Notes under the pieces: generated by a model
The model's database searches: none
Told to the model about the DNA's origin: nothing
The model's input: only the letters and a program-made list of their open reading frames with translations
Made by a program: the position numbers and the translations under genes
Source of the DNA: Candidatus Bipolaricaulota bacterium
GTDB taxonomy: Bacteria > Bipolaricaulota > Bipolaricaulia > UBA7950 > UBA9294
Assembly (NCBI GenBank): GCA_026390345.1
Contig: JAPLGD010000068.1
Span: forward strand, 24,078 to 88,077
Length of the DNA: 64,000 nucleotides
Direction of reading: 5' to 3'
In this document: one piece after another, positions 16,655 to 42,900 of the stretch
Layout of the letters: each line of letters starts with the position of its first letter
Position numbering within the stretch: the first letter of the stretch is position 1

Positions 16655-17326
16655 CTACTCGTCGTCTTCGCGGGGTGTGCCCCGTCGATGCCCGCGGCGG
16701 TCGGGCCGCCCGCGCGGCGCTCTCTGCGCCTTGCGCGCCGAGATCGGCAACTCCTGCTTCCGCGTCGTCTTCGCCTTCTCTGTGCAGAGCGCCACGAGCG
16801 CGTCGTGAATCGTTTCAAGCTGGTACTCGCGCGTCCTCTGAGTCACGGGGATGAGGTCGACCGTCGCCGCGCCGAGCTGCCTCGCCAGCCGCTCCATCGT
16901 GGCAAGGCATGACACCGCTCCGTTCCCGGAGCCGCCCGCCGCGGCTACACAGATCGTCGGCTTCTCCGCGAGCGCGCTCGCCGCACTCTCCGACTTCGTC
17001 GCTTCGCAGCGACGCAGCCGATCGAAGAACGCCTTGAACGCCTCGCTCGGCTCGCCGAAGTACACCGGGGTGACCCACACGAACGCCTCCGCCTCACCGA
17101 ACATCGCGTGCAGCTCTTCGAAGTCGTCCTCCAATCGGCATTCGTGCTTCGTCTTGCACGGTCCCCAACCGTCGGCGCACACAGCGCACCGCTCGATCAT
17201 GTAGCTCGGCAGGTTGACCACGCGCGCCGGACACCGGCCGTCCACAACCCCCTGCCGTGCCGCTTCTCCGCACGCAGCGGTCAGGCCAGCCTCGTTCGGG
17301 CTAGACGTGATGACAAGAACCTTCAT
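16655..17326 (-). CDS. Iron-sulfur flavoprotein-like / NADPH-dependent FMN reductase family (flavodoxin fold with a compact Cys cluster)
   Basis: MKVLVITSSP ... CAVCADGWGPCKTKHEC (CX2CX6CX5C). An ATGA overlap with the molybdopterin subunit stop at 17323-17326. Confidence 0.7.
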   Translation of the reverse strand: MKVLVITSSPNEAGLTAACGEAARQGVVDGRCPARVVNLPSYMIERCAVCADGWGPCKTKHECRLEDDFEELHAMFGEAEAFVWVTPVYFGEPSEAFKAFFDRLRRCEATKSESAASALAEKPTICVAAAGGSGNGAVSCLATMERLARQLGAATVDLIPVTQRTREYQLETIHDALVALCTEKAKTTRKQELPISARKAQRAPRGRPDRRGHRRGTPREDDE

Positions 17327-19656
17327 CGCTCTCCTTTCGGCCGTCGCTCACACACGAGCGCCTCAAGCACTCGTTCCGGCGTGAACGGCGTCCGCCGCAG
17401 GCGGATGCCTACGGCGTCGTAGATCGCGTTCGCGATCGTAGGGATGGGCCCGTTGATCCCGATCTCACCCACCGACTTGGCGCCCATCGGTCCCGTCGGC
17501 TCGTACGATCCCACCAGGATCACGTCAAGGTTCGGAACGTCGAGGGCCCCGGGAATCTTGTAGTCGAAGAGAGACGGGTTTCGCACCCGCCCCGTCGAGC
17601 TGAACAGCATCTCCTCGCTGAGAGCGTAGCCGATCCCGTTGACGATCGCCCCCTCCATCTGACCCTCCGCCATGAGGGGGTTGATCGCGACTCCGCAGTC
17701 CACGGCGGCCACGTAGTGTACGACCTTCACCCGCCCCGTCTCCACGTCCACGGCGACCTCAGCAAAGTTGGCCAGGAACGGCGGCGGGGACTCACTGGGG
17801 ACGCACGACGCCGTCGCCGCGATCTGGAACTGGTCCGACGAGTACATCGCTCGCCGACACACCTCGGCCAGCGAAACCCGCGCCCCCGCAGGGCCGACGG
17901 CGTGCTCGCCGACCAGCCGCAGGCTCTCGACGGACGCCTTCAGCATTGGCGCGGCCACCGACAGGATCTGGCCGCGCACTCCTTCCGCGGCCCGCTGGAC
18001 GGCCATCCCCGACACGTACGTCGTCGACGACGCGTACGCGCCGACGTCGAACGGGGTCAAGTCCGTGTCGGAGGACGTCACGATCATGCGCGACGCGGGA
18101 ACGCCGAGCACCTCGGCGGCAATCTGCGCGAGGATCGTGTCCGACCCGGTTCCGATATCGGTCGCCCCGACAAGCAGGTTGAACGACCCATCCTCGTTCA
18201 TCTTGATCGTCGCCGCGGCCATGTCGATCTGCGGGATTCCCGAGCCCTGCATCATGATCGACATTCCGACGCCGTGAACCCACGGCCCCTCGCGGCGCCG
18301 GGCTCCGCGCTTCTCACGCCAGCCGATTCGCTCGGCGCCGACCGCGATGCACCGCTCGAGCTCGCAGCTCTTGACCGTCTGCGAAACGCCCTCGCGTCCC
18401 TCTCCGAGCTTTTCGAAAATCGGCGATGTCTCTCCTACCCGGATGTGGTTTCGACGCCGCAACTCGATCGGGTCGAGGCCGAGGCGTTCCGAGAGCTCGT
18501 CCATCGCCGTCTCGAGCGGGAAGTACCCTTGCGTCGCACCGTAGCCGCGGTAGGCTCCCGGAACCGGGAGGTTCGTGTACACCGCCTGCCCGTAGAAGTG
18601 GGCGTTCTTCGCCTTGTTGTAGAGCGGCAGTGTCTTCGAACCGGTGTTGGCGAGCACGGTCAAGCCGTGCGCTCCGTATGCCCCCGTGTTCGACGTCGCC
18701 TCCATCTCGATCGCGTGGAGCACGCCGTCCTTGTTCGCACCAAGCTTCACGCGAACGCGCATCGGATGGCGGGTCCGCGCCGCGACGAACTCCTCCGCGC
18801 GCGACAGGCTGAGGAACGCGGCGCGTCCCGTCCGGAGCGTCACCCAGCCCGCGATGTCCTCGAGCAGGACCTCTTGCTTCGTGCCGAATCCCCCGCCGAC
18901 GCGCGGCTTGATCACCCGGATCCGTTGGATCGGGATCCCTAGCGTCTGTGCGACGATGCGCCGAACGTGGAACGGGACCTGCGTGCTCGTCCGTAGAACA
19001 AGCCGATCGTCGCTGTCGAGGTAGCTGTGGACGACGTGGGTCTCGATCGGCGTGTGTTGGGCGTACTGCGTCTCGCACGTCGTCTCCACGACCACGTCCG
19101 ACTCTACGAATCCACGCTCGACGTCGCCCACGTCAATGTCCACATCGGCGACGATGTTTCGTGCGGCTTCGTAAATCCCCGTCGAGTCCCCCTCGTCGTG
19201 AATGACGGGGGCCCCCTCGGCTCTCGCCTCGTCGATCGAGAGCACCGCCGGCAGTTCTTCGTACGTGACCCGGATCGCCCGCAAGGCCTCCTCCGCCGCC
19301 TCCTCTGTCTCCGCCGCCACCGCCGCGACGCGATCACCAACGAAGCGCACCTTCGTGTCGAACATCCGCGCGTCGTAGGGCGACGGTTCCGGATAGCCCT
19401 GGCCCGCCGTCGTGTGCCTTGTCGAAGGCGTGTTCTCGTACGTCAGGATCGCGATCACACCGGGGATCTGCGCCGCCGCGGAGCTGTCGATTCGGACGAT
19501 GCGGGCGTGCGCGTGAGGGCTCCCAAGGATCTTGACGTAGAGCACGTCCGACAGGTCAACGTCAGCGACGAATTTCGGTTTCCCTTTGACGAGACCGACG
19601 CCGTCGACCTTGCGGACGCTTTGCCCGACGACGACAAACGACTCTCGCTCAGCCAT
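17323..19656 (-). CDS. Xanthine dehydrogenase/aldehyde oxidase family molybdopterin-binding large subunit (CoxL-like, 777 aa)
   Basis: Typical N-terminal a/b-hammerhead (VRKVDGVGLVKGKPKFVADV) and molybdopterin-binding domains. It overlaps the 2Fe-2S gene. Confidence 0.9.
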   Translation of the reverse strand: MAERESFVVVGQSVRKVDGVGLVKGKPKFVADVDLSDVLYVKILGSPHAHARIVRIDSSAAAQIPGVIAILTYENTPSTRHTTAGQGYPEPSPYDARMFDTKVRFVGDRVAAVAAETEEAAEEALRAIRVTYEELPAVLSIDEARAEGAPVIHDEGDSTGIYEAARNIVADVDIDVGDVERGFVESDVVVETTCETQYAQHTPIETHVVHSYLDSDDRLVLRTSTQVPFHVRRIVAQTLGIPIQRIRVIKPRVGGGFGTKQEVLLEDIAGWVTLRTGRAAFLSLSRAEEFVAARTRHPMRVRVKLGANKDGVLHAIEMEATSNTGAYGAHGLTVLANTGSKTLPLYNKAKNAHFYGQAVYTNLPVPGAYRGYGATQGYFPLETAMDELSERLGLDPIELRRRNHIRVGETSPIFEKLGEGREGVSQTVKSCELERCIAVGAERIGWREKRGARRREGPWVHGVGMSIMMQGSGIPQIDMAAATIKMNEDGSFNLLVGATDIGTGSDTILAQIAAEVLGVPASRMIVTSSDTDLTPFDVGAYASSTTYVSGMAVQRAAEGVRGQILSVAAPMLKASVESLRLVGEHAVGPAGARVSLAEVCRRAMYSSDQFQIAATASCVPSESPPPFLANFAEVAVDVETGRVKVVHYVAAVDCGVAINPLMAEGQMEGAIVNGIGYALSEEMLFSSTGRVRNPSLFDYKIPGALDVPNLDVILVGSYEPTGPMGAKSVGEIGINGPIPTIANAIYDAVGIRLRRTPFTPERVLEALVCERRPKGER

Positions 19657-20125
19657 TCCGTCCGCTCCTCATCCGCTCGGCCGCCGTTTGGACCGCCCGG
19701 ATCTGCTTCACGTATCCGGTGCAGCGACACAGATTGCCCGAGATCGCCTCGCGGATCTCCCCCTCGCTCGGGGTCGGGTTCCGAGACAGGAGGTCGTACG
19801 CGGAGAGAACCATGCCCGGCGTGCAGTACCCGCACTGCACCGCGCCTTCGTCGAGGAACGCCTCCTGGATCGGGTGGAGCGCGTCGCCGTTCGCAAGCCC
19901 TTCGATCGTCAGGATCGCTCTCTTCTCCGCCTTCGCCGCCAGGACGAGGCACGCGTTGACCGCGCGGCCGTCGAGGAGCACGGTGCACGCTCCGCAATCC
20001 CCCGACCCGCACCCCTTCTTGACGCCTACGTGCCCCGCGCGGCGTAGGACCTCGAGCAGCGTGTCTCCCGGGTTCGCATCGACGACGCGGCGCGCGCCGT
20101 TGATCGTCAGTTCGAGGCTCGTCAT
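19649..20125 (-). CDS. (2Fe-2S)-binding small subunit of a molybdenum hydroxylase (CoxS-like)
   Basis: CGSGDCGACTV and QCGYCTPG, CRCTGY motifs. Confidence 0.9.
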   Translation of the reverse strand: MTSLELTINGARRVVDANPGDTLLEVLRRAGHVGVKKGCGSGDCGACTVLLDGRAVNACLVLAAKAEKRAILTIEGLANGDALHPIQEAFLDEGAVQCGYCTPGMVLSAYDLLSRNPTPSEGEIREAISGNLCRCTGYVKQIRAVQTAAERMRSGRNG

Positions 20126-20988
20126 AGCGCCCCCTCCATCCCGTCACGCGTCAGCCGCTCAAAGCAACGCCGCACGCCGACCTCGGTCAACGTCCTGCGG
20201 TACAACTCCGACGCGCGGCGGTCGTCGCGAGCGTCGACGCCGCGCGCCGCGAGCGACGCCGCGTCGCCGATCGTCGCCGACGACGGACGCTTCCCCTCGA
20301 GGGCAGCTTCCACGTCTGGGAGCCTCCGCGCCAGGGCCGGTGTTCCGCCCACGGCGACTCGCACGCGGCTGCAGGTGCCCTTCGCAACCTCCACAACGCA
20401 GGCGCAATTCAGAAGCCCGACGTCGAACCCTGTTCGCGCGAACTTCTCGAACGCGCCTCGTGTTGAGGGCGCCCGCTTGGGCAGCCGGATCCCCGTGACG
20501 AGCGGAGCGACGTTCTGCGATCGTGAGGCGTAGAAGTCCGCGGCCGGAACCGAGCGCGCCGCACCGTCGAAGACCTCAACGTCCGCGTCGAGGACCAAGA
20601 GAGCAAGAACCACGTCCGACCAGGGATGGGCGCGCGCCACCGCGCCGCCGATCGTCGCCACGTTCCGCTGCAGCGGAGACGCGACCTGCCGAAGCACGTC
20701 ACGGAGGAAGCCGCCTGCATAGGCGGCGATCTCCGGGGCCTCAAGAATCCGCGAGAGGGTCGTCCCGGCACTGATCGCGAGTCCCGCGCGGCCTGCGCTA
20801 ACCCCTGCTCGCCCGAGCCGCGAGACGTCGATCAGCGTCGTCACCGTCTCCGGCGTGTACAGAATGAGATCGATTCCTCCGCCGAGGAATCGCGTCGTCT
20901 CCGGGTCGGCCGTCCGAAGCCTCCACGCCTCGTCCGCCGTGGTCGGCCGGGCGATCGACTGGATGCGGTGAAGTCCCACGTCTTCCAC
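20122..20988 (-). CDS. FAD-binding subunit of a molybdenum hydroxylase (CoxM-like)
   Basis: LGGGIDLIL, ATIGGAV and related motifs. The start is GTG at 20988 or 20979. The tracked ORF extends into upstream Arg-rich read-through. Overlaps the next gene by 4 nt. Confidence 0.8.
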   Translation of the reverse strand: MEDVGLHRIQSIARPTTADEAWRLRTADPETTRFLGGGIDLILYTPETVTTLIDVSRLGRAGVSAGRAGLAISAGTTLSRILEAPEIAAYAGGFLRDVLRQVASPLQRNVATIGGAVARAHPWSDVVLALLVLDADVEVFDGAARSVPAADFYASRSQNVAPLVTGIRLPKRAPSTRGAFEKFARTGFDVGLLNCACVVEVAKGTCSRVRVAVGGTPALARRLPDVEAALEGKRPSSATIGDAASLAARGVDARDDRRASELYRRTLTEVGVRRCFERLTRDGMEGAL

Positions 20989-21303
20989 GTCTCCTTCGCG
21001 TTCTTCGCGTCGATTATTGCCATCGCCTCGGGCCGAAACAAGCGGACCCGGCTTCCCGTGTTTGCACGCCGTGGTGCCTCGCATCGCCCATCTTGTCGTA
21101 TCCTCCATGTGATGCTATCCTGTGACTACGCATAGCGGCCTCCTGTCCGGAACGCCGTGCCTCATCCGGCGGGCGGAGCAAGGCTACAGAAGCTGCGGCT
21201 CCGCCCGCCCTCCGTTTCCCGGCCGTATCGTTGTCTGACCGTCCGACAGCCGCTATCCTCTCCCCCGCAGGTTGCAGAAAGCGCCGACCGGAACGGAGGT
21301 CCG

Positions 21304-22629
21304 ATGAAACAAGCGATCGAGAACGCTGTCGTGTGGGACGGGGAGCGGGTGATCGAGCGCGGATCAATCCGGATCGAGGACGGTCTGATCGCCGCGGTCG
21401 GCCCGACCGCAGGCAGTCGTTTCGCCGCAGACGAGACGATCGACGCCGAGGGAAGGCTCGCAATCCCCGGGTTCATCAACGCCCACACCCACCTCTACAG
21501 CAGCCTGGCGCGAGGGCTGTCCCTCCCCGGCTACGCGCCGCAGTCGTTTACCCAGATCCTAGAGCAGCTCTGGTGGCGACTCGACAAGGCTTTCGACGAC
21601 TCCGCCGTAACGACGAGCGCCCTCGTCGGCGCGATGGAGGCGGCCCGCTGCGGGGTGACAACCCTCGTCGACCACCACGCGAGCCCGAACGCGATTCCCG
21701 GCTCGCTCGACCGCGTGCGCGACGCGGTGTGCCGCCGAGTCGGCCTTCGCGCCGCTCTGTGCTACGAGACGTCCGATCGGGACGGAGACGAGCGTGCCCT
21801 CCTCGGGATCCAAGAGAACGCCCGTTTCCTCGCGACCCTCGACCCGCAGGATTCGCTCTGCTCGGGGCTCTTCGGGCTTCATGCCTCGCTGACGCTCGGC
21901 GACGGAACGCTCCGAGCCGTCGCGGCGAAGTTCCCGGACGGCGCGGGGATCCACATCCACGTCGCCGAGGGTCCGGAGGACGAGCCGCAGTGCGTGAAGC
22001 GCCACGGCGTCCGCATCGTTCCGCGGCTCGACGGGTTCGGCCTTCTCCGCCCGCGCTCGATCCTGGCCCACTGCCTGCACGTGGACGCCGACGAGAAGGA
22101 CTTGATCGCCAAGCGGGACGCGATCGTCGTCCACAACCCGCGCTCCAACATGAACAACGCCGTGGGCACCTTCGACCTTGACGGATTCCTCGACCGCGGC
22201 ATCCTGGCGGGGCTCGGGACGGACGGACTCGGCGCGAACATGCTCGCTGAGCTCTTCACGGCCGGACTCGCCCAGCGCCAGGCGAGGCAGGACGCTCTCG
22301 CCGGAGCATTCCCGCAGCTCGACCGGCTTCTCTTCGAGAATAACCCTGCGATCGCCGAGCGCGTCTTCGGAGTCCGGACCGGGCGGCTCGTTCCCGGGGC
22401 TCCCGCCGACATTGCCGTCCTCGACTACGCGGCCCCGACGCCGCTTGCCGAAGGCAACGTTCTCGGGCACCTCCTCTTCGGGGTTGCCGTGCACGCGCTC
22501 CGCGTGAGCGACCTGTTCGTAGGGGGCCATCCGATCCTGCGGAAGGGCCTGTTCGTCGACCTCGACGAGCGCGAGGAGTACGCGCACGCTCGAGAGGAAG
22601 CGCGCCGCCTGTGGAAGCGAATCGCATGA
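21304..22629 (+). CDS. ssnA: SsnA-like putative aminohydrolase (amidohydrolase superfamily)
   Basis: GFINAHTHLYSSLARG ... LWWRLDKAFD ... VDHHASP ... HNPRSNMNNAVG ... GLGTDG are collinear with E. coli SsnA. ATG at 21304 is preceded by GGAGG. Confidence 0.85.
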   Translation: MKQAIENAVVWDGERVIERGSIRIEDGLIAAVGPTAGSRFAADETIDAEGRLAIPGFINAHTHLYSSLARGLSLPGYAPQSFTQILEQLWWRLDKAFDDSAVTTSALVGAMEAARCGVTTLVDHHASPNAIPGSLDRVRDAVCRRVGLRAALCYETSDRDGDERALLGIQENARFLATLDPQDSLCSGLFGLHASLTLGDGTLRAVAAKFPDGAGIHIHVAEGPEDEPQCVKRHGVRIVPRLDGFGLLRPRSILAHCLHVDADEKDLIAKRDAIVVHNPRSNMNNAVGTFDLDGFLDRGILAGLGTDGLGANMLAELFTAGLAQRQARQDALAGAFPQLDRLLFENNPAIAERVFGVRTGRLVPGAPADIAVLDYAAPTPLAEGNVLGHLLFGVAVHALRVSDLFVGGHPILRKGLFVDLDEREEYAHAREEARRLWKRIA

Positions 22630-22639
22630 GGAGGCGACC

Positions 22640-25600
22640 GTGAGCCACGCCATGCGTCCGACGCCCTTCGAGCCGCTCCTTCGCCGAGTTCTCGACGAGT
22701 ACCGCGAGCGAGGGAGCATCCTTGGGATCCCCGGCGGCCTCTTCTACCGACCGCAGGAGTCCGCCCCGTATGCGACGAAGATCTTCGGCTCTCCGCTCGC
22801 GACCCCGATCGGTCCGGCCGCCGGTCCGCACACCCAGCTCGCGGGGAACATCGTCTCGGCGTGGCTGTGCGGCGGACGGTTCATCGAGCTGAAGACAGTC
22901 CAGATCATGGACGAGCTCGATATCCCGCGCCCGTGCATCGACGCCGCCGACGAGGGGTACAACGTCGAGTGGTCGCAGGAGCTCCGCCTGGAGGAGTCCG
23001 CCCGCGAATACGCGTCGGCGTGGGCCCTCGTCCACATCCTCCACCGGCTCCTCGGCCTCGAAAGGCGGGTCCCCCTCGGCACAGTCTTCAACATGAGCGT
23101 TGGCTACAACCTGGAGGGAATCCGCAGCTCCCGCATGCAACGGTTCATGGACTCCCTCGAGGACGCTTCGGAACTCCTCGACCCGATCCGCAAGAGGCTT
23201 CGGACCCGCTTCCCACGCTTCGCTGACGTCGACATTCCGAACCGCATCGCGAACAGCGTCACGCTCTCGACGATGCACGGCTGCCCGCCCGACGAGATCG
23301 AGCGGATCGCGACCCATCTCCTCGCAGAGCGCGGCCTGCACACGACCGTCAAGCTGAACCCAACGCTCCTCGGTAAGGAGCGCCTGGCCCAGATCCTCCA
23401 CAGCCATCTTGGGTTTGTGGAGATCGAGGTTCCCGACGCCGCCTTCGCCCACGACCTCCCCTACGACCGAGCCCGCGAGCTGATCGCGTCGCTCCGGCGC
23501 GCCGCCGATCGATGCGGCCGGACGTTCGGCGTAAAGCTGTCGAACACCCTTGAGGTGAGAAACCATCGCGGCGTCCTCGCGGGAACCGAGATGTACCTGT
23601 CGGGCCGGCCCCTCTACCCAATCACGCTCGACCTCTTCCTACGGTTGCGGCGTGAGTTCCCAGGCCTTCCCGTGTCGTACTCCGCCGGCGCCAACGCCGA
23701 CAACGTCGCGTCGCTCCTCGCCGCCGGCGTATGCCCCGTGACGGTCGCCTCCGACCTTCTGAAGCCCGGAGGCTACGGCCGACTCGCCCAGTATTTGGAA
23801 CGCATCTCCGACGCCATGGCCGCGGCAGGCGCCGCGTCGCTCGCGGCGTTTGCCGCCGACGCCGATCGCACCCTGGAGCGCGTCGCGGCCGAGGCTCTCT
23901 TCGACCCTCGCCACACGAAGGGCTACGTCCCGGCGGAGCTTCCCAAAGTGGCATCGCCGCTGACGGCGTTCGATTGCATCGCGGCCCCGTGCGTCGAGGC
24001 GTGCGCGGTCTGCCAAGATGTGCCCGAGTACGTTGGCTACCTCGAGGACGGCGACGCGGACGCCGCGCTCACGGCGATTCTCCGCCGGAACCCGCTCCCC
24101 GGCATCACCGGTCACATCTGCACGCACCGTTGCCAGACCCGCTGCACGAGGACGAACGTCGACCGCGCTGTCGGGATTCGCGACCTAAAGCGGTTCGCCC
24201 TCGAGCGCGGACAAGCCCGGCTCACTCCCGCTGCATCCACGGGGCACCGGGTCGCGGTGATCGGCGCCGGACCCTCCGGCCTCGCCGCCGCCTTCCACCT
24301 CGCGCTCGCGGGCGTCGCCGTTACGGTCTTCGAGGCAAAGGATCGAGCCGGCGGAATGCCGGCACTCGCCCCGGCGTTCCGACTCCCACCGAACATCGTC
24401 ACCGCCGACGTGGCACGCATCGAGGCGCTCGGCGTCGAGATCCGCACGAGCGCGCCGATCAAGGCGCCGCCGAGCGACCTCCTCGCGCAGGGCTTCGCCG
24501 CCGTCTACGTCGCCACCGGCTTCCCAAGAGACTCGATGCCCGAGGACGTCGCTGGGATCGATGCCGAGGGAGTGTACGGGGCCGTCGACTTCCTTGACCG
24601 CGTCGCCCACGAGCGGCCGCCGGCCCTCGGCACCTCGATCGTCGTCATTGGCGGCGGGAACACGGCGATGGACGCTGCGCGAACGGCATCTCGCCTCACC
24701 CACCACCCGTGCACCGTCGCCTACCGCCGGACGCGGGCCGAGATGCCGGCCGACGCCGAAGAGGTCGCCCTCCTGCTCGAGGAGGGCAACGTCCTCCTCG
24801 AACTCGTCTCTCCTGTGAAGGTCGTCGCCGAACGCGGTCGCGTCGTGTCCGTCGAGTGCGTTCGCAACCACCTCGGCGAGCCCGGAGCCGACGGGCGTCG
24901 CCGCCCCGAACCGACCCCGGGGAGCAATCTGCGGTTGTCGGCCGACGCCGTCATCGTCGCCACCGGCCAGCGCTCCGACCGCGATCTCCTGCGCTCCTGG
25001 AGGCTCGAGACCCGACCGGACGGAGGCGTCGTCGTGCACGAGGCAACCGGCCGGGCGGCACCGGACGCGATCTACGCCGGCGGCGATCTGGCCCGCGGGC
25101 CGGCGATCGCCGTGGCAGCGGCCGCCGACGGGCGGCGCGCTGCGGAGGCGATCCTGGCCGAGCTTGGAATCCCGCTCCGCGCCCCGGCAGATCGCGCGAC
25201 GCCGAGCGCGTCCCGCGATGTCGAGGAGATCCGCCGCCGCAGAGCCCGGAGAGACAATCGCCAGGAGCCGTCTCGGCTTCCCATCGGACGACGCGGCGGG
25301 TTTGAGCTTGTGACGTCCGGCTTCACCGAGGCCCAAGCCTCCTCGGAAGCGTCGCGCTGCCTCCAGTGCGCGACCATCTGTGAGAAGTGCGTCCAGGTCT
25401 GCCCCAACCGCGCCAACGTCCCGTACGAGATCGAGCCGGTCGACGTCGAGGTCCCCGTCGTGTCCCTCGCGGACGGCGCGGTCGCAGGCCACGAGCGCGT
25501 CTCGATCCATCAGCCACGTCAGATCCTTCACATCGACGACTTGTGCAACGAGTGCGGCAACTGCACGACGTTCTGCGTCCACGAGGGGAAGCCGCACGCC

Positions 25601-25924
25601 GAGAAGCCCCGGCTCTTCTGGGACCGCGCCGCGTTCGACGCCACCGGACAGAACGCCCTGTTCGTCGACGGCACGGCGCTCTACGCGAAGACCGCGGACG
25701 GTGAGTCGATTCGCGTGCTCCTGACGGAAGACGGATACGCGTACGAGGACGCGAACCTCACGGCCCGGCTGACCCCGGCACTCGCCGTCACCGAGGTCCA
25801 CTCGCGCAGAAGGGGGAAGGGGAACCGCTCTCTGCGCGCCGCCGTCGAGGCTGCGGCTCTATTCCGCGCCTTACGGAAGTCCGCGCCTTTCGTCCTCCCG
25901 GACCAAGAAGAAGGAGCCTCCTGA
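22640..25924 (+). CDS. ygfK: YgfK-like Fe-S/FAD oxidoreductase (putative selenate-reductase subunit family), 1094 aa
   Basis: Motif-by-motif match to E. coli YgfK (MRPTPFEPLL, GPAAGPHTQLA, GGRFIELKTVQI, CIDAADEGYNVEWS, NMSVGYNLEGI, LSTMHGCPP, VKLNPTLLG, LLKPGGY). Also a GltD-like NAD(P)/FAD domain and a C-terminal Cys cluster. GTG start after GAGGAGG. Confidence 0.9.
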   Translation: MSHAMRPTPFEPLLRRVLDEYRERGSILGIPGGLFYRPQESAPYATKIFGSPLATPIGPAAGPHTQLAGNIVSAWLCGGRFIELKTVQIMDELDIPRPCIDAADEGYNVEWSQELRLEESAREYASAWALVHILHRLLGLERRVPLGTVFNMSVGYNLEGIRSSRMQRFMDSLEDASELLDPIRKRLRTRFPRFADVDIPNRIANSVTLSTMHGCPPDEIERIATHLLAERGLHTTVKLNPTLLGKERLAQILHSHLGFVEIEVPDAAFAHDLPYDRARELIASLRRAADRCGRTFGVKLSNTLEVRNHRGVLAGTEMYLSGRPLYPITLDLFLRLRREFPGLPVSYSAGANADNVASLLAAGVCPVTVASDLLKPGGYGRLAQYLERISDAMAAAGAASLAAFAADADRTLERVAAEALFDPRHTKGYVPAELPKVASPLTAFDCIAAPCVEACAVCQDVPEYVGYLEDGDADAALTAILRRNPLPGITGHICTHRCQTRCTRTNVDRAVGIRDLKRFALERGQARLTPAASTGHRVAVIGAGPSGLAAAFHLALAGVAVTVFEAKDRAGGMPALAPAFRLPPNIVTADVARIEALGVEIRTSAPIKAPPSDLLAQGFAAVYVATGFPRDSMPEDVAGIDAEGVYGAVDFLDRVAHERPPALGTSIVVIGGGNTAMDAARTASRLTHHPCTVAYRRTRAEMPADAEEVALLLEEGNVLLELVSPVKVVAERGRVVSVECVRNHLGEPGADGRRRPEPTPGSNLRLSADAVIVATGQRSDRDLLRSWRLETRPDGGVVVHEATGRAAPDAIYAGGDLARGPAIAVAAAADGRRAAEAILAELGIPLRAPADRATPSASRDVEEIRRRRARRDNRQEPSRLPIGRRGGFELVTSGFTEAQASSEASRCLQCATICEKCVQVCPNRANVPYEIEPVDVEVPVVSLADGAVAGHERVSIHQPRQILHIDDLCNECGNCTTFCVHEGKPHAEKPRLFWDRAAFDATGQNALFVDGTALYAKTADGESIRVLLTEDGYAYEDANLTARLTPALAVTEVHSRRRGKGNRSLRAAVEAAALFRALRKSAPFVLPDQEEGAS

Positions 25925-27162
25925 TGGGCCGAATCGCCGCTCTGCGCTGCATCAGCTGCGGGGTCGAGTACAACCCCGCGCGTGTGGACTACACCTGTCC
26001 GTCCTGTGGGCCGCGGCGCGGCACGCTCGAGGTCCTCTACGACTACGACCGGTTGCGCCGAACCCTGAAACCTTCGTCGTTCTCCGAGACCGGGTTCGCC
26101 TCGATGTGGCGCTACGAGGCGCTCCTTCCGATCGAGGACCGCCGGTTCATTCAGCCGCTGCGTGTCGGATGGACGCCCCTCTACGCTTTTCCGGGCCTCG
26201 CGAAGGAGCTTCGGCTGGCCGCATTCTACGTGAAGGACGACGGACAAAACCCCACGGCCTCCTACAAAGACCGCGCGAGCTCGGTCGTCGTCATCAAGGC
26301 CCAGGAGAAGGGGAGGCCGGTCGTCACGTGCGCATCCACGGGGAACGCCGCGTCCTCCCTCTCCGGTTTTGCGGCGTCGACCGACCTCCGGACGATCATC
26401 TTCGTCCCCGAACGCGCCCCGGAAGCCAAGGTGGCCCAGCTTCTGATCTACGGCGCCAAGGTCTTCCTCGTCCGCGGATCCTACGACGTGGCCTATGACC
26501 TTGCCGCGGAGGCGGCCGAGGCGTTCGGGTGGTATAACCGGTCCGCCGCCGTGAACCCGTACCTGGTCGAGGGTAAGAAGACGGGGGCGCTCGAGATCGC
26601 CGAACAGCTCGGGTGGAACCCGCCGGACGTTGTCTTCATCGGCGTCGGGGACGGCTCGGTGATCAGCGGCCTTTGCAAGGGGTTCGACGAGCTCGTTCGC
26701 CTCGGGCTGATCGCCCGTGCCCCGCGCGTGATCGGCGTCCAGGCGGAGGGCTCGGCGCCGATCGCCCGCGCATTCGCCGCGTACCGGGGACGCACCGTCC
26801 CCATCGAGGATGGGGACGCCCACACCGTCGCTGACAGCATCTGCGTCGGCAAGCCTCGGGACATCGTCAAGGCCGTCACCTACGTCGCGCGAAACGGCGG
26901 CGAGTTCGTGACGGTGAGCGACGCCGAGATCCTCGACGCGATCGTGACGTTGGCCCGCAGGACTGGCGTGTTCGCCGAGCCGGCGGGAGCGGCCTCGTAC
27001 GCCGGGCTTCGCAAGCTCGCCGCCGCGGGTACACTGGAGGGGAAGACGGCGGCCGTCGTGGTTTCCGGGAACGGGCTGAAAGACGTGGCCTCGCCGAGGA
27101 CGATCGTCGAATCTCCCATTCCCGTCGAGCCGTCGTTGAAGGAGATCGAGCGGCACCTATGA
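25924..27162 (+). CDS. Threonine-synthase-like fold-type-II PLP enzyme with an N-terminal zinc ribbon
   Basis: CISCG...CPSCG ribbon, and TASYKDRAS, which contains the PLP lysine. ATG overlaps the ygfK TGA by 1 nt (TGATG) and is preceded by AAGGAG. Confidence 0.8.
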   Translation: MGRIAALRCISCGVEYNPARVDYTCPSCGPRRGTLEVLYDYDRLRRTLKPSSFSETGFASMWRYEALLPIEDRRFIQPLRVGWTPLYAFPGLAKELRLAAFYVKDDGQNPTASYKDRASSVVVIKAQEKGRPVVTCASTGNAASSLSGFAASTDLRTIIFVPERAPEAKVAQLLIYGAKVFLVRGSYDVAYDLAAEAAEAFGWYNRSAAVNPYLVEGKKTGALEIAEQLGWNPPDVVFIGVGDGSVISGLCKGFDELVRLGLIARAPRVIGVQAEGSAPIARAFAAYRGRTVPIEDGDAHTVADSICVGKPRDIVKAVTYVARNGGEFVTVSDAEILDAIVTLARRTGVFAEPAGAASYAGLRKLAAAGTLEGKTAAVVVSGNGLKDVASPRTIVESPIPVEPSLKEIERHL

Positions 27163-27665
27163 AGGTCCGATTCACCGTGAACGGTCATGCCGCAACTGTC
27201 GAGGGAGACGCCGAGATGAGGCTCCTCGACGCGCTTCGCGACGTGCTCCATCTCACGGGAACGAAGGAGGGGTGCGGCGAGGGGGAGTGCGGAGCCTGCA
27301 CCGTCCTCCTCGACGGCCTCCCCGTTAACTCGTGCCTCGTCCTCGCCGCTCAGGCGGAGGGACGCGAGGTGCTGACGATCGAGGGGCTCGCCGACGGCCC
27401 GCGGCTGCACCCGATCCAGCAGGCGTTCGTCGACGCCGGCGCGGTACAGTGCGGCTTCTGCACCCCGGGGTTCGTCATGTCGACCTACGCGCTGCTCCGC
27501 GACCACCCGGCGCCGTCCGAAGAGGAGATCCTCACAGCGCTCGAGGGAAACCTGTGCCGCTGCACGGGGTACGTGAGAATCGTCGATGCGGTCAAGCGGG
27601 CGGCCGTGCAGCTGGCCGAGACGCGCCTCGGTGAGGCGCGAGCACGAGCGCGGGAGACCGCATGA
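27159..27665 (+). CDS. (2Fe-2S)-binding molybdenum-hydroxylase small subunit
   Basis: [11 protein letters not shown] and [14 protein letters not shown] motifs. ATGA overlap with the upstream gene. Confidence 0.9.
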
Positions 27666-28261
27666 TCGCAGGCCTCGTCCTCGCCGCTGGACTCGGTCAA
27701 CGGATGGGGGCGATCAAGCCGCTCGTCGACGTGGATGGCGTCCCTTCCCTCGGCCGCGTGCTGGCGACCCTCGACGAGTCAGGAATGCAATTCGTCGCCG
27801 TCGTTCTGGGAAACGATGCCGAGCGAATCCGAAGCGAGGTCGACCTCAGAGGGCGGCTGGTCGTCGTGAACCCGTCGCCCGAGCGCGGGATGGCATCCTC
27901 GCTCGCCCTCGGCCTCGCGGCGCTCCCTGCGGACGCGGAGGGAGTCCTCGTCTTCCACGCCGACATGCCGTTCCTTCGATCCACGACCGTCCGCGCCGTC
28001 CTTCTCGCCGCCGCGGAAGCAGAGATCGCGGCTCCGTCTTGGAACGGGGTTCGCGGGTTCCCGGTGTTCTTCCACCGCCGTCAGTGGGAGGAACTGCGTT
28101 CGACCCTCCACGGCGACGCCGGGGGAAAGAGCTTCATCCGCCGGCATCCCGACCGCCTGCAAACAGTCGAGGTCGAGGATCCGGGTTGCGTTCGGGACAT
28201 CGACCGTCCCGACGATCTCACGCCGCAGAAGGAGACCCCGTGCTGCGCTACGTCCGAGTAG
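27662..28261 (+). CDS. mocA: MobA-like NTP transferase, probably molybdenum cofactor cytidylyltransferase (MocA/YgfJ-like)
   Basis: LVLAAGLGQRMG..KPL N-terminal motif. ATGA overlap with the upstream gene. The gene context is the same as E. coli ygfJ-ygfK. Confidence 0.75.
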   Translation: MIAGLVLAAGLGQRMGAIKPLVDVDGVPSLGRVLATLDESGMQFVAVVLGNDAERIRSEVDLRGRLVVVNPSPERGMASSLALGLAALPADAEGVLVFHADMPFLRSTTVRAVLLAAAEAEIAAPSWNGVRGFPVFFHRRQWEELRSTLHGDAGGKSFIRRHPDRLQTVEVEDPGCVRDIDRPDDLTPQKETPCCATSE

Positions 28262-29082
28262 ACACAGAGGCCGAGCTTCTCGACGCCCTCCGCAAGGACG
28301 GCGCCCAGCTTCTGTCCGGGGGAACGGACCTCCTGGTGAAGATGCGCTCCGGGCTCGTCCGGCCAAAGAGCCTCGTCGACCCCGCTGCCGTTGCCGAGCT
28401 TCGCGGGATCGAAACGGCCGGAGGGGCTTTGCGTATCGGCACCGCAACGCCGCTGAGCGAGATCCTGGCCTCGAAGGAGGTTCGAGAGAGAGCTCCACTG
28501 CTCGTCGACGTCCTCCGCGTCCTCGGATGCGTCCAGATCCGCAACCGCGGCACCCTCGGAGGAAACCTTGCGAATGCGTCGCCGGCCGCCGACAGCGCGA
28601 TCCCTCTCTTGCTCTACGAGGCGAACCTCGAGCTGGCCGGAGGTGACGGCGCACGCAACGTCCCCGTCGGTGGATTCTTCCTCGGACCCGGACGCACGGT
28701 CCTCCAGCACGGCGAGTACATCCGCGCCGTCCGCATCCCCGCCTCGCGGCAGAACTGGATCCCGTTCTTCCACAAGGTGGGCCGCCGGCGCGCTTTGACG
28801 ATCGCCATCGCCAGCATCGGGGGTCTCGCCGCCGTCTCGCAGGGAAGAGCCACCGAAGTCCGCCTCGCGGCCGGGTCGGTGGCACCGATTCCGCTCCGCC
28901 TCAAGTCCGCCGAGGAGTGGCTCGCCGGGCGCGCTCTCGACCGGGAGACGATCCAACACGCCGGGGCGCTAGCCGCCGGCGAGGTCTCCCCGATCGACGA
29001 CGTCCGGGCCACTGCCGCCTACCGACGCGCCGTCACCGGCGACCTCGTCGTGCGCTTCCTCGAGGGCGCCGCAGCCGCCTAG
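28240..29082 (+). CDS. FAD-binding molybdopterin dehydrogenase subunit (YgfM/XdhB-like)
   Basis: LLSGGTDLLVKM and TLGGNLANASPAAD motifs. A GTG at 28240 is preceded by AGGAG and overlaps mocA by 22 nt. The tracked ORF start is upstream read-through. Confidence 0.8.
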   Translation: MLRYVRVDTEAELLDALRKDGAQLLSGGTDLLVKMRSGLVRPKSLVDPAAVAELRGIETAGGALRIGTATPLSEILASKEVRERAPLLVDVLRVLGCVQIRNRGTLGGNLANASPAADSAIPLLLYEANLELAGGDGARNVPVGGFFLGPGRTVLQHGEYIRAVRIPASRQNWIPFFHKVGRRRALTIAIASIGGLAAVSQGRATEVRLAAGSVAPIPLRLKSAEEWLAGRALDRETIQHAGALAAGEVSPIDDVRATAAYRRAVTGDLVVRFLEGAAAA

Positions 29083-29149: not shown

Positions 29150-29527
29150 ATGTTCAAGCGCCGGCTCGGTCTTGCGCTCGGAGTCCTGAGCTGTCTTCTG
29201 CTCGCCGGATGCGAGTTCTTCCAGCAGCCGCCCGTCGCGTCGTTCGTCGTCCACTACAGCGTTGTCAGCACCGACCCGATGGTCGTCGACCTCGACGCGT
29301 CCGCCTCGTCTGATCCGAACGGAGATGTGATCACGGCGTACATGTGGACGTTCGGAGACGACGTCACGATCCTGACTCCGCTGGATACGACGAAAACCGT
29401 GACGGTCCCTGTGCTACGCGTGCGCTATCCTCTCGAGGGTGCGTACCCCGTCCAACTCTTAGTACGGAACGAGTTGGGCGAGACGTCAGCGATCGTCTCA
29501 GGAACCGTAACGCTCCCGCACGAGTGA
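29150..29527 (+). CDS. Lipoprotein with a single PKD domain
   Basis: Signal peptide with an LLAGC lipobox. LDASASSDPNGDVITAYMWTFGD PKD signature. ATG after GGGAGG. Confidence 0.7.
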   Translation: MFKRRLGLALGVLSCLLLAGCEFFQQPPVASFVVHYSVVSTDPMVVDLDASASSDPNGDVITAYMWTFGDDVTILTPLDTTKTVTVPVLRVRYPLEGAYPVQLLVRNELGETSAIVSGTVTLPHE

Positions 29528-30794: not shown

Positions 30795-30936
30795 TGGGCA
30801 CGAGATTGACCCTTACTGAGGGGAAGAAGAAGCATCGCAGGTAGGAGCGCATACGCGAAGCCTGATCGGAGGCCGTTGGGGCCGTCCGGTTTCATTTCGA
30901 TAGCACCCCCACTTGGCATGCTGGCCAGGAGGAGCC

Positions 30937-31881
30937 ATGAAAGAGCCAAGGGCAACGATCAGCTTGAGCAAGAACTTGAGCACGAAGGCCAATGACGATC
31001 ACGACATTGACCTGATGGAAGATCGTCCCTCTCATGCAGACAACCCGATTCGCACCTACTTCGGAGAGATCAGCCGAGTCCCGCTGCTCACGCGCGAGGA
31101 CGAGGTACGGCTCGCGAAGCGCATCGAGGCCGGAGACCAGCGGGCCCGCGAGGAGCTCGCCGAGGCCAACCTCCGCCTCGTCGTGTCCATTGCCAAGAAG
31201 TACCGCGGCTGCGGGCTTCCGTTCCTCGACTTAATCCAGGAGGGAAACCTCGGCCTGATGAAGGCGATCGAGAAGTTCGACTACACCAAGGGGTATAAGT
31301 TCTCGACCTACGCCACGTGGTGGATCCGGCAAGCAATCCTGCGTGCGATCACGAACCGATCGCGCACGATCCGCGTGCCAACCCACATCAACGAGCTGAT
31401 CCGCAAGATCTACCAAGTGGAGCGGAACTTCCTCAAGGAGAACGGCGAACTGCCGACTCCGGAGAACCTCGCGCGCGCCCTCGAGACCACGGTCGACAAC
31501 ATCATCAAGGCCAAAAAGACGGCGCAGAGCATGACGTCGCTCGACACCCCGATTGGGTACGACGACGACGGGTCCGTGCTCGGCGACTTCATTGAGGATG
31601 CGACCGTCGAGTCCCCCGAGCGCGAGACTTTCGAGCACCTCTTGGTTGAGGAGCTCGAGCGGGCCCTCGACGAGCGGCTTACCGACCGCGAGAAGAGGAT
31701 CCTGGAACTGCGCTACGGGCTCAACGACTACCAGCCGAAGACGCTCGATGAGGTGGGGATCGAGTTCGGAATCAGCCGCGAGCGCGTGCGTCAGATCCAG
31801 AAGGAAGCCCTGGCGAAGCTTCAGGACTCGGACCTCAAGCAGCGTCTCGAGTGGTTCAAGCTTCTGTCGGAGGCGGCGTAG
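30937..31881 (+). CDS. RNA polymerase sigma-70 family factor (RpoD/SigA-like regions 1.2-4, 314 aa)
   Basis: [26 protein letters not shown] and a region 4 HTH. ATG at 30937 is preceded by AGGAGGAG. Confidence 0.85.
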
Positions 31882-34147
31882 CGGACGACGCGCCGTCTCC
31901 GAGTTCTTCCCGGTAGTCGCATTCCTTCGACGTGCAGCGAAGCTCCCCCTGTTTCTCGACGACAAGGCCGGTCCCACACGACGGACACGCCCTGACCGGG
32001 CGGTCGCTCACCGCAAAGCGGCACTTCGGGTAGCGGTTGCAGCTGTAGAACGCCCTCCGCCGCTTCGTCGAGTATTTCTCGATGAGCGTTCCTTCTCCGC
32101 ACTCCGGACACGCCACGCCCGTGGACACCGGCGCCGTCTCGGCGCAGTCGGCGCTCGTGCACCGGTAGTACCGCCCGTAGCGACCGGAGCGGAGCTCCAT
32201 ATCGCCACCGCACTTCGGGCACTCGACCGTCTCGATCACCGTGGCCGCGGCCTTCTCGAGTGCGTCCTTGGCCTTCACGCCGCTTGAGGTGTAGACGACC
32301 TCGAGGTTCGGGGGAACGTTGACGGTGCTCTTGCACTCGGGGTACCGCGAGCAGCCGAGGAAGTGGGTCCCCTTCCAGTAGCGAAGCTCCATCGGCGCGC
32401 CGCAGATGTCGCACAAGACGTCGGACGGGACCTGGAACGGGCGCTCTTCGCCGTCCTCGAGCTGCTTCTCAAGCGCCCCGAGGCGGGTTGAGAAAGGCCC
32501 GTAGAACTCATTCAGGGCGTCGACCCGCGACATCTGCCCTTCCTCGATCCGGTCGAGGTCCTCCTCCAAGTGGGCGGTGAAGTGGGGCTCCACGGTCTCG
32601 GCGAAGAAGCGATTCAGGAAATCCACGACCATCTGCCCGAGGAGCGTAGGGCGGAGGCTGCCGCCGTCCTTGATCGCGTACCCGCGCTCTTGGATCACGG
32701 AGACGATCGACGCGTAGGTACTCGGTCGGCCGATCCCCTCCTTCTCCAACAGATTCACGAGCCCGGCCTCGCTGTACCGCCGCGGTGGCTCCGTGTGCTT
32801 TTGCCGCTTCGCCACGGAAAGCAACTCAAGGGCCTTCCCCTTCCGAAGGTCCGGCGGGTATGGGGTCTCCTTGTCGCGCCGGTCGGGGAGGACGCGCAGG
32901 AATCCGTCGAACTCAAGCCGGCTCGCCGTCGCCTGCAGGGTAAACTCCCCCGCCGTGACGGTCAGCGTGCGCTGGCGGAACACCGACGGAGTCATCTGCG
33001 TAGCGAGGAACCTCCCGTAAATCAGTCGGTACAGCTTCAGCTGGTCCGCCGTGAGGTACGACGAGATCGCCTCGGGGGATCGCCCCACGTCGGTCGGGCG
33101 GATCGCCTCGTGCGCGTCCTGAGACCGCCGCTTGTTCTCGAACGTACGCACCTTGGGGGCGAGGTACTTCGGGCCGAACGTCTTCTCGATCTCCTCGCGC
33201 GCCGCCGTGACCGCCTCGTCGGAGAGGCGAACCGAGTCGGTTCGCATGTACGTAATCAGTCCCTCGTTCCCCTCAGGCAGGCTGATTCCCTCGTACAGCT
33301 CCTGGGCCACGCTCATCGTCCGCTTCGGCGAGAACCCGAGGAACGAGGACGCCGCCTGCTGAAGCGAGCTCGTGATAAACGGCGCAGCGGGGTTGCGGAG
33401 TCGGTCCTTCTCCTCGACGGAGGCGACGACCGCCTTGGCCTTCTTGAGTGCCTTCTCGACCGCGTCCGCCTCGGCCTGCGACCGCACCGTCAGCTTCTCG
33501 TCCCCGCGGTGCGTCACCGACGCGGTAAACATCTCGCCGTTCCCGAGCTCCGCGTCGATCTCCCAATACTCCTCCGGCACGAACTCGGCGATCTCGGCCT
33601 CGCGGTCGCAGAGGAATCTCAGCGCCACCGACTGGACGCGCCCGGCCGACAGCCCGGCGAACCGACTTCCCGCGAGGATCCTCGAAAGCAGCGGGCTCAC
33701 CATGTACCCCATGAGCCGATCGAGAATGCGCCGAGTGCGTTGGGCCTCGACCTTGTCGAGGTCGATCGCCTCCGGCTTGGCGAGTGCCGCCTGGATCACC
33801 GGCTTCGTGATCTCGTTGAAGATGGGTCGGGAGAACGCCTTCTCATCCTTCACGACCCGGTTCAGGATCGTGAACAGGTCGTAGGCGATCGCCTCTCCCT
33901 CCCGGTCGTGGTCGGTTGCGAGGTACACCTTGTCGACGCCCTCGGCCGCCTTGCGCAGCTCCGTCAGAAGCTTCGTCCGTTTCGTCTCGAACTTCGGCTC
34001 GAATCCGTTCTCGATGTCGACGCCGAGGTCGTTCTGCGGGAGGTCTCGCACGTGACCCTGCGACGACAGCACGCGGTACTCCTTCCCAAGGTACTGGCCG
34101 ATCGTGCGTGCTTTGGTCGGCGATTCGACGATGATCAGCTTCTTCAA
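31856..34147 (-). CDS. topA: DNA topoisomerase I with four C-terminal zinc ribbons
   Basis: [15 protein letters not shown] Toprim start, and repeated CxxC...CxxC zinc ribbons. A TTG at 34147 is preceded by AAGGAG. The upstream 305 codons of the tracked ORF are read-through. Confidence 0.85.
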
Positions 34148-34255
34148 TTCCCCAGGCTCCTTTCGAGTCGGCCCATTATACCGGCCGCCCCCGCCGTGTC
34201 GAGGGTCACGCGGCCCGAGCCTGTCGCCCTCTCCGGCGCGTTGTATCATGCGGTC

Positions 34256-35581
34256 GTGAGCGAGAGGAGCATTCGGCACGTCGTCGTTGAGGGACTTCCG
34301 GCCGTCGGCAAGACGGAAATCCTCGCTCTTTTGGCGCGCTTCTACCCCCAGTCGGTGCGCGTCCTCCCTGAGCTCGTGAAGGAGGTCGTCGAAGCGGAGG
34401 GAATTGACCTCTTCCGCGAGCGCGAACGGCTGACGGATGCTCTGCGCCGCGCGGGCCCCGAACGCGCGCGCCGCATTCGCGAGATCCTGTCGGCCGACCA
34501 CCTGTGCTTGGAGGAGTCTCACCTGGGCGTGCACTGCGCGTACTCTCAGGCGCTCGGAGACTCCTCGTTCCTGCGCGCCTACGAAGATCTCGCGGCGCGC
34601 CTTCCCGAGCCGGACCTCTACCTCCGCCTGGATCTTCCAATCGCGGAGTCGATCGCGCGGCAGGCCGCGCGCGGTACGCCCCAGTACGCGATCGACGCTT
34701 CGAGGCTCAGGCAATTCCTGGACGAGCTGACGGCCTGGCATGACGCGCGCCGCACGCGGCTCGTCACGATCGACGCGGATCGCCCCGCTGCCGTCGTCGT
34801 CGAAGCCGTCGAGCGCGCCCTCGGCCTCGACTACGCCCTGGACTGCGCTTCCGGCGAGCCGACCTTCGGCGTCCTCCTTCTCTTGGGCCGCCCCGCGAGC
34901 GGGAAGAGCGAATTCATCGACTTCATGTCCCGACTCCCGGCCGACGAGCGGGCCGCGTGCCACCACCTTGGACCCCTCGAGGTCATCGACGACTTCCCCA
35001 TTCTGTGGCGGAAGTTCGAAGAGGACGACGCGTGGGAGCGGCTCGGCCGCCCGCGACTCCACTCGAGGCGCGCGGACGACAACTACGCCGTCACCGACGA
35101 CGCCATCTGGGAGTTCCTAATCGACCGAATCGACGCAGCCGCCCGGGAAAGGCTAGCGCGCGGAGCCGGCTCGGCCGGAACCCTCCTGATCGAGTTCTCG
35201 CGCGGCGGGGCGCGAGGCTACGCGGACGCCTTCGCCGCGCTGTCGGACGACCTCCTGTCGAGGGCCGCCGTGCTCTACGTCTCGGTGTCCTTCGAGGAGT
35301 CGTGGCGACGGAACCTCGCCCGCTACGATGAGAACCGGCGGAGCGGCATCCTGACCCATTCCGTCCCGCGAGAGGAAATGGAGCGTACATACGGCGCCGA
35401 CGACTGGACGCGCCTCGCTCCCCACGAGTCCGGCCTCCTCGACGTCCGGGGTCTCCGGATCCCCTACGTGACCATGGGAAACGAGCCTGAGTCCACCGAT
35501 CCCCGCGTCCTCGGCCCCCGCTACGGACGCGCGCTCGGGCTTCTTTTCGCCCTCTGGGAGCGTCGACGAGCGCCGCGCTAG
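34256..35581 (+). CDS. Fusion of two P-loop kinase-like domains (N-terminal deoxynucleoside-kinase-like; C-terminal AAA_33/polynucleotide-kinase-like)
   Basis: GLPAVGKTE Walker A with a DLYLRLDLPIAESIARQAARG lid-like segment, then a second Walker A LLLGRPASGKSE. The GTG start at 34256 is uncertain; a TTG at 34241 is an alternative. The 5' part of the tracked ORF is antisense to topA. Confidence 0.6.
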   Translation: MSERSIRHVVVEGLPAVGKTEILALLARFYPQSVRVLPELVKEVVEAEGIDLFRERERLTDALRRAGPERARRIREILSADHLCLEESHLGVHCAYSQALGDSSFLRAYEDLAARLPEPDLYLRLDLPIAESIARQAARGTPQYAIDASRLRQFLDELTAWHDARRTRLVTIDADRPAAVVVEAVERALGLDYALDCASGEPTFGVLLLLGRPASGKSEFIDFMSRLPADERAACHHLGPLEVIDDFPILWRKFEEDDAWERLGRPRLHSRRADDNYAVTDDAIWEFLIDRIDAAARERLARGAGSAGTLLIEFSRGGARGYADAFAALSDDLLSRAAVLYVSVSFEESWRRNLARYDENRRSGILTHSVPREEMERTYGADDWTRLAPHESGLLDVRGLRIPYVTMGNEPESTDPRVLGPRYGRALGLLFALWERRRAPR

Positions 35582-38206: not shown

Positions 38207-38261
38207 CGAAGACACCTCCACACTCCGGCGTGCGAACTCACACTCCGAGCTTGAACCGTTC

Positions 38262-38615: not shown

Positions 38616-38618
38616 GGC

Positions 38619-42429: not shown

Positions 42430-42455
42430 CTTCTCCCCTTGCAAAGAACGCTCTG

Positions 42456-42480
42456 CCCTAAGGCCTCACGGGCCTTAAGG
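42456..42480 (-). terminator. Hairpin in the rplL-rpoB intergenic region (possible attenuator)
   Basis: CCTTAAGGCC-cgtga-GGCCTTAGGG on the minus strand (one bulge), followed by GTTCTTTGC. Confidence 0.35.
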
Positions 42481-42897: not shown

Positions 42898-42900
42898 CGC

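Follow-up and report, generated by a model that had tools for sequence, protein, structure and literature searches.

Which catalytic subunit is served by a pair of small subunits that have no large-subunit gene beside them? The question is raised by a 64,000-nucleotide stretch of Candidatus Bipolaricaulota bacterium (assembly GCA_026390345.1, contig JAPLGD010000068.1, positions 24,078 to 88,077), referred to below as the window. Two divergent operons were delimited in it by codon-position G+C and Pfam matches. The minus-strand operon encodes a molybdopterin-binding large subunit (L) of the xanthine dehydrogenase family with its own 2Fe-2S subunit (S) and flavin adenine dinucleotide (FAD) subunit (M). 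The plus-strand operon encodes SsnA, YgfK and, further down, a second 2Fe-2S subunit (S'), a MocA-like protein and a second FAD subunit (M'). The locus is a conserved, selected variant of the recently described reductive urate cluster in a Bipolaricaulota lineage. For S' and M' we tentatively favor an unlinked large subunit encoded elsewhere in the genome, at somewhat short of an even chance. Two other readings survive, a shared XdhD-type large subunit and, at lower probability, YgfK as partner; the remaining probability lies with other explanations.

A sequence-only reading of this locus had reported a 2Fe-2S gene, an FAD-subunit gene and mocA in the plus-strand operon with no large subunit among them, and a sole large subunit in the divergent operon alongside its own FAD and 2Fe-2S subunits. 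Both observations were borne out by Pfam and by tblastn of the 64 kb. Its outline of the plus-strand operon was amended in two places: the operon had been taken to start at ygfK, whereas ssnA (ATG at 21304, GGAGG 4 nt upstream) is the true first gene, and a threonine-synthase-like (ThrC-like) pyridoxal phosphate (PLP) enzyme gene lies between ygfK and the S' gene. G+C content across the window was 62–71%. Adjacent genes overlap by 1–22 bases or are separated by gaps of 10–67 bases (Table 1). The plus-strand operon was found identical in three independent Logan assemblies, which, together with its retention in relatives (described below), indicates that the arrangement is not an assembly artefact.

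Gene content was compared with the E. coli cluster, in which XdhD-YgfM reduces urate to 2,8-dioxopurine and YgfK and SsnA dearomatise and open the ring (PMC12507026, PMC12990295). The counterparts of all three, an XdhD-type enzyme, YgfK and SsnA, are present together here. YgfK and SsnA pass NCBIfam equivalog cut-offs as in the E. coli cluster: YgfK scored 913.6 bits with TIGR03315 (cut-off 835.3) and SsnA 457.5 bits with NF005540 (cut-off 444), the latter falling just under the cut-off of TIGR03314 (428.5 against 455.5). The FAD and NAD(P)H glycine motifs of YgfK and all its cluster cysteines were invariant in an alignment of 17 sequences. No tblastn match at E<1e-4 was obtained in the window for the lower-module proteins HyuA, YgeW, YgeX, YgeY and YqeA or for YqeB and YqeC, all of which distinguish the E. 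coli cluster from this one. Judged by homology, the locus is predicted to encode the upper half of the reductive (anaerobic) uric-acid pathway: the enzyme of the minus-strand operon would reduce urate to 2,8-dioxopurine, and SsnA and YgfK would then dearomatise the product and open its ring.

The large subunit of the minus-strand operon is the only window protein with a hammerhead domain and MoCoBD_1/2 (Pfam). Identity with E. coli XdhD is 42% and with XdhA 35%, and the protein carries the XdhD-specific active-site loop, in which LGEGREG aligns with XdhD IGEGKAP and the equivalent of Glu606 is included. This insertion occurs neither in XdhA nor in large subunits of clades B, C and E. Glu606 is the glutamate proposed by Li et al. 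to orient urate (PMC12507026). With the XdhD family model TIGR03313 the protein scored 708 bits, under the cut-off of 1101.9, and matched profile positions 350–949 only; the cut-off implies a fused N-terminal 2Fe-2S-like domain, and here the 2Fe-2S part is a separate gene. All eight cysteine ligands of S were kept in every orthologue examined, and M has the GG(T)D and T(L/I)GG motifs. The M reading frame is open to 21108, and its likely start is a GTG at 20979, chosen from the profile match and an upstream GGAG. Ratios of nonsynonymous to synonymous substitution (dN/dS) against the closest relative, locus L005, were 0.07 for the large subunit, 0.09 for S and 0.26 for M. The XdhD identity and the Glu606 loop of the large subunit mark the minus-strand operon as encoding what is predicted to be a complete, split-form XdhD-type enzyme with its own FAD, 2Fe-2S and molybdenum subunits. 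As in the E. coli cluster, the FAD subunit gene is adjacent to that of the large subunit and a MocA-like gene is in the cluster; unlike in E. coli, XdhD is split into separate 2Fe-2S and molybdenum genes, the operons are divergent, and an extra FMN reductase-like gene (dN/dS 0.12) is present. That gene shares 4 bases with the end of the large-subunit gene and was co-operonic in L005, L028, L036 and L038, and its product may donate electrons to the XdhD-type enzyme. The route by which electrons reach the molybdenum enzyme of the pathway is an acknowledged open point (PMC12990295). The FMN reductase-like protein, translationally coupled to the large subunit, also has a cysteine-rich CxxCx6Cx6C motif that recalls iron-sulfur flavoproteins.

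Subunit S keeps its cysteines, and the corresponding domain of E. coli XdhD has none. In E. coli K-12 the N-terminal 2Fe-2S-like domain (L004:31317-31890) has no cysteine before residue 190, and each of the eight cluster ligands has given way to another residue (D, A, D, S, S, N, S, D). Iron-sulfur clusters in XdhD are not discussed by Li et al. 2025 (PMC12507026). The cysteine-free domain, set against the intact split S here, leaves one to ask by what route the YgfM flavin delivers electrons to molybdenum in E. coli. Partial loss was observed as well: 2Fe-2S subunits beside an XdhD-type large subunit in two Marinimicrobia-like loci (L042:15449-15919 and L046:15570-16031) are without the four N-terminal, flavin-side cluster cysteines and keep the four on the molybdenum side.

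S' and M' were examined in the same way. The eight cluster cysteines of S' were invariant in 10 orthologues and the GGTD and TLGGN motifs of M' in eight sequences; ligands and FAD motifs were constant across orthologues 43–82% identical. M' matched FAD_binding_5 with 152 bits, and dN/dS against L005 was 0.18 for S' and 0.25 for M'. Kept motifs and low dN/dS indicate that both are intact, functional proteins under purifying selection. That they are decaying remnants of a lost second enzyme is scarcely credible and in effect excluded by this combination: the cognate large subunit of Marinimicrobia-like relatives is indeed gone from the cluster, but the dN/dS values are similar to that of YgfK (0.23), the eight cysteines and FAD motifs do not vary among orthologues, translational coupling links the genes in the operon, and the arrangement is kept in about 20 loci.

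The type of these subunits was established with family models. M' scored 204.5 bits with the XdhB model NF043083 (cut-off 310) and S' 190.3 bits with the XdhC model NF043084 (cut-off 217); both scores are under the cut-offs, yet these families were among the best-scoring. E. coli XdhB as query matched only M' in the window (34% identity). The sequence-only reading had called M' YgfM-like, a label that is not borne out and would probably go to M instead: with the YgfM model TIGR03312 (cut-off 241.5) M' scored 34.2 bits and M 34.9, against 489.7 for E. coli YgfM, and in a neighbor-joining tree M' was placed with XdhB-type subunits and not with YgfM, while M clustered with E. coli YgfM (63.5% bootstrap) and adjoins an XdhD-type large subunit. 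S' and M' thus resemble the subunits of E. coli XdhABC and B. subtilis PucCDE in scoring best on XdhC, XdhB and related models and in their standard cofactor motifs. They differ from those systems in scoring under the equivalog cut-offs, in having no XdhA/PucD-type large subunit and in the insertion of mocA between them. XdhABC and PucCDE are three-gene xanthine dehydrogenases made of L, M and S. Relative to the E. coli urate cluster, the S'-MocA-M' set is an extra one. S' is 57% identical to S, and a first neighbor-joining tree suggested a recent duplication of S; bootstrap support was 0–9%, the phylogeny of these 150-residue proteins being unresolved, and the idea was dropped. The C-terminal domain of S' that contacts the large subunit is 60–65% identical to that of S against 49% to the Marinimicrobia counterpart, and it is equally close (62%) to an S' protein that serves a different large subunit (E-type, below), so that it does not discriminate between partners.

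A second large subunit was sought by tblastn with the window's own large subunit, the large subunits of four other clades, and E. coli XdhA and XdhD. At E<1 none was found in the 64 kb, every query matching the minus-strand large-subunit gene only. A literature search on orphan or shared small subunits returned nothing relevant. Relatives were then collected by a scan with the YgfK alignment, one genome per species (80 loci), and by a metagenome scan with the M' alignment (80 further loci), and the window proteins were mapped onto all of these loci by tblastn. L005, L028 and L036 show the divergent arrangement in full, and L038 as far as its contig reaches, to a point inside ygfK. The minus-strand set lies 2–7 kb from ssnA in L011, L025 and L087, and the plus-strand operon alone was recovered on shorter contigs (L010, L013, L014, L019, L085, L086, L089-L095, L097). 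A common downstream order was seen in loci of the window lineage, namely the PKD lipoprotein, an acetyltransferase, an unknown gene, a sigma-70 factor (85–97% identical) and rpoC. These shared downstream genes indicate one vertically inherited lineage, whatever phylum label the metagenome-assembled genomes bear, and the arrangement therefore represents one old state under selection and not many independent events.

Three other groups of loci bear on the partner. In Marinimicrobia-like loci (L045, L046, L047, L083), an affiliation inferred from named clade C profile matches, the same gene families occur as in the window (SsnA, ThrC-like enzyme, S', M', YgfK, XdhD-type M-S-L, mocA). Unlike the window, they lie on one strand in the order clade C large subunit, ssnA, two or three genes, PLP enzyme, S', M', ygfK, a second amidohydrolase, M-S-L of the XdhD-type clade and mocA, with overlapping stops and starts in S'-M'-ygfK. 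There are thus two small-subunit sets and two large subunits per cluster, one for each set, and the large subunit of S' and M', upstream of ssnA, is 5 kb off and not adjacent. In E-type loci (L088, L096, L165-L168, L171, L172) the S'-M' pair falls into one orthologous group with that of the window, M' being 52–55% identical to the window M' and nesting inside its clade. Unlike the window, these operons have no YgfK, SsnA or mocA; the single unfused clade E large subunit, 31% identical to that of the window, is 4.5 kb off on the other strand, beside an aldehyde:ferredoxin oxidoreductase (AFOR) gene. The third group comprises L100 and L121, in which the order (L100:8924-16270) is S, mocA, M, a split DPD-like (dihydropyrimidine dehydrogenase-like) reductase (preT-like, preA-like), M2, S2, ssnA and adenine deaminase. 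In neither of these purine-type clusters did the 10 kb on either side contain a large subunit of the molybdenum enzyme. All orphan small-subunit sets found sit in YgfK/SsnA-type clusters.

We favor, with the reserve stated above, an unlinked partner. S', the MocA-like protein and M' would form the small-subunit half of a second xanthine dehydrogenase-family enzyme, the molybdenum large subunit of which would be encoded elsewhere in the genome, outside the 64 kb. This enzyme would most plausibly be a purine-oxidising dehydrogenase supplying urate to the pathway, with electrons passing from molybdenum through the two 2Fe-2S clusters of S' to the FAD of M' and on to NAD+. We infer every enzyme activity assigned to the locus, and above all the existence of the unlinked subunit; what was observed is the gene content, the intact cofactor motifs, purifying selection, a conserved arrangement and a large subunit of XdhD type. 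Several findings argue for such a partner, among them the kept motifs and low dN/dS of S' and M'. M' and S' match XdhB and XdhC models best. The minus-strand large subunit is already provided with S and M, both intact and under selection. Two sets with two large subunits in L045, L047 and L083, of the closest lineages that have both sets, suggest that one large subunit per set is ancestral or normal. The spacing in Marinimicrobia-like and E-type loci suggests that the large-subunit gene is habitually non-adjacent in the S'/M' family. The orphan sets of L100 and L121 indicate that unlinked large subunits do occur in the context of this pathway.

Several results weigh against an unlinked partner. 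No second large subunit was found in the window 16 kb upstream or 35 kb downstream. A second large-subunit gene in relatives, a possibility raised by the sequence-only reading, was absent from the 14 tabulated loci of the window lineage with 0.4–10 kb of sequence downstream of M', although it is present in the Marinimicrobia-like clusters. Among the best 120 matches listed, neither the clade C profile search nor the clade E large-subunit search gave an unfused Bipolaricaulota match. The clade C matches bearing names in that list were from Marinimicrobia, FCB or Lentisphaeria. Among its best matches the clade E search listed eight unfused clusters, of which the four with context examined were all E-type and beside their own S' and M', followed by S-L fusions, including one from Bipolaricaulota sp. 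J31. The named Bipolaricaulota matches among the best 120 were S-L fusions in a different, UacX-type cluster, the absence of others from such a list being weak evidence. No candidate gene for the unlinked large subunit was found. A large subunit was adjacent in nearly all of about 50 informative generic M' homologues, so that an unlinked one is the exception; among M' homologues with informative flanks and at most 45% identity, it was adjacent in all but L100 and L121.

A possible, if on balance doubtful, alternative is that one XdhD-type large subunit is shared, assembling either with S and the YgfM-like M or with S' and the XdhB-like, NAD(H)-linked M'. Sharing would give two isoenzymes with differing redox partners or directions, the S/M set perhaps being fed by the FMN reductase-like protein. 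Neither the window nor any relative with flanks has a large subunit other than the XdhD-type protein in the locus; nearly all M' homologues have a large subunit in the same locus; both operons diverge from one 324-bp region; and no unlinked candidate emerged from the clade C and clade E searches. The locus' sole MocA-like gene lies between S' and M', and in the Marinimicrobia-like loci mocA follows the clade A large subunit. Orthologues of S' and M' have served clade C and clade E large subunits, as expected of a portable module whose partner changed in evolution. Against sharing stand the S and M genes beside that of the large subunit, both intact and under selection, and the relatives in which two sets are accompanied by two large subunits; it also leaves unexplained the orphan sets of L100 and L121, which have no large subunit nearby. 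No case in which two small-subunit sets use one large subunit in common is known to us.

That S' and M' work without a molybdenum subunit, as a free-standing 2Fe-2S/FAD module docking on YgfK or wiring the XdhD-type urate reductase to it, we consider improbable. Small-subunit genes do adjoin YgfK or DPD-like genes in several phyla (Marinimicrobia-like loci, L100 and L121), and such a module would explain why the orphan sets, all found in YgfK/SsnA-type clusters, occur specifically there in two unrelated lineages, the window's and that of L100 and L121. YgfK is disfavored as the partner because it is self-sufficient: it has its own FAD and NAD(P)H motifs and has kept all cluster cysteines, and E. 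coli YgfK with SsnA functions in vitro with NAD(P)H alone (PMC12507026). In addition, S, M and L are all absent from the vicinity in 38 of the 80 YgfK loci, a MocA-like gene interposed between S' and M' is suggestive of a molybdenum enzyme with a molybdopterin cytosine dinucleotide (MCD) cofactor, and E-type orthologues of S' and M' occur beside a large subunit without any YgfK. No precedent is known to us for small subunits of the S'/M' type working without a molybdenum subunit. Weighed together, an unlinked partner is at least as likely as either the shared subunit or YgfK.

Table 1. Features of the two divergent operons and adjoining sequence, in window coordinates.
Feature	Coordinates	Strand	Basis or remarks
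FMN reductase-like flavoprotein	16655..17326	-	Pfam FMN_red; final gene of minus operon
Molybdopterin large subunit L(A), XdhD-type	17323..19656	-	PF01315 hammerhead + PF02738/PF20256 (MoCoBD_1/2)
2Fe-2S subunit S	19649..20125	-	Fer2 + Fer2_2
FAD subunit M, probable YgfM counterpart	20122..20979	-	FAD_binding_5 + CO_deh_flav_C
Divergent intergenic region, 324 bp	20980..21303	.	direct sequence reading
SsnA amidohydrolase, plus operon gene 1	21304..22629	+	NF005540
YgfK, DPD-like Fe-S flavoprotein reductase	22640..25924	+	TIGR03315
Threonine-synthase-like (ThrC-like) PLP enzyme, N-terminal zinc ribbon	25924..27162	+	PALP; PRK08197
2Fe-2S subunit S', XdhC-like, without cognate large-subunit gene	27159..27665	+	Fer2 + Fer2_2
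MocA-like cytidylyltransferase	27662..28261	+	PF12804 (NTP_transf_3), TIGR03310
FAD subunit M', XdhB-like, without cognate large-subunit gene	28240..29082	+	FAD_binding_5 + CO_deh_flav_C
Small PKD-domain lipoprotein	29150..29527	+	PKD_4; signal peptide, LAGC lipobox

The remaining genes of the plus-strand operon were assigned as follows. The MocA-like protein passed Pfam NTP_transf_3 (126 bits), a family of MobA-like NTP transferases, and scored 121.9 bits with TIGR03310, under the cut-off of 186.45; its dN/dS against L005 was 0.21. MocA cytidylyltransferases act in MCD cofactor synthesis. The PLP enzyme scored 294.9 bits with PRK08197, just under the cut-off of 303. Its gene overlaps the start of S', and the N-terminal zinc ribbon has the pattern CxxC...CxxC. 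It occupies the position that YgeX has in the E. coli cluster; orthology with YgeX was rejected by homology comparison. In clusters of Bacteroidota, Bipolaricaulota and the Marinimicrobia-like group the gene stands immediately ahead of an S-L fusion or a 2Fe-2S gene, and the enzyme may replace YgeX or have a role in cofactor maturation. In Bacteroidota it is followed by an S-L fusion that passes the selenium-dependent xanthine dehydrogenase model, and a separate S-M fusion with an XdhB-type large subunit lies beside ygfK. The PKD lipoprotein gene directly follows M' in 15 related loci (36–68% identity), and its membership in the plus-strand operon is uncertain.

No match to the sigma-70 consensus was found in the 324-bp divergent region, and scans for promoters and terminators yielded no signal beyond chance. 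A housekeeping block (30913-47526) adjoins the cluster on its downstream side. It opens with a Pfam-checked sigma-70 factor gene (30913-31881), and the rest of it consists of large open reading frames and small genes on the minus strand. By order and size, the minus-strand frames in this block look like rpoC, rpoB, ribosomal protein and elongation factor genes.

AFOR genes (a tungsten enzyme family) recur beside xanthine dehydrogenase-family or purine-type clusters in several lineages, Bipolaricaulota sp. J31 among them (L096:2904-4787; L100:4644-6422; L165-L168, L171, L172; L169:1-1877; L020; L142). An AFOR gene was considered as a partner, and none is present in the window. The cluster of Candidatus Bipolaricaulota sp. 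J31 (L169:6316-14088) is of a different, clostridial type, comprising amidohydrolases, a UacX-like DHO_dh/Fe-S reductase, a molybdenum enzyme in which S and L are fused and no FAD subunit accompanies them, and an aminotransferase.

It was not until 2025 that the reductive uric-acid pathway was elucidated. The locus described here offers a natural experiment on it: a single XdhD-type catalytic subunit is combined, in one co-regulated locus, with a flavoprotein reductase and with two electron-transfer modules that are both intact but differ in type. If the partner of S' and M' lies elsewhere in the genome, as we tentatively favor, the operon would hold part of an ordinary split gene set, and the result would serve mainly as a caution for the annotation of such clusters. 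If instead the large subunit is shared, this would be, to our knowledge, the first xanthine dehydrogenase-family enzyme with exchangeable redox modules.

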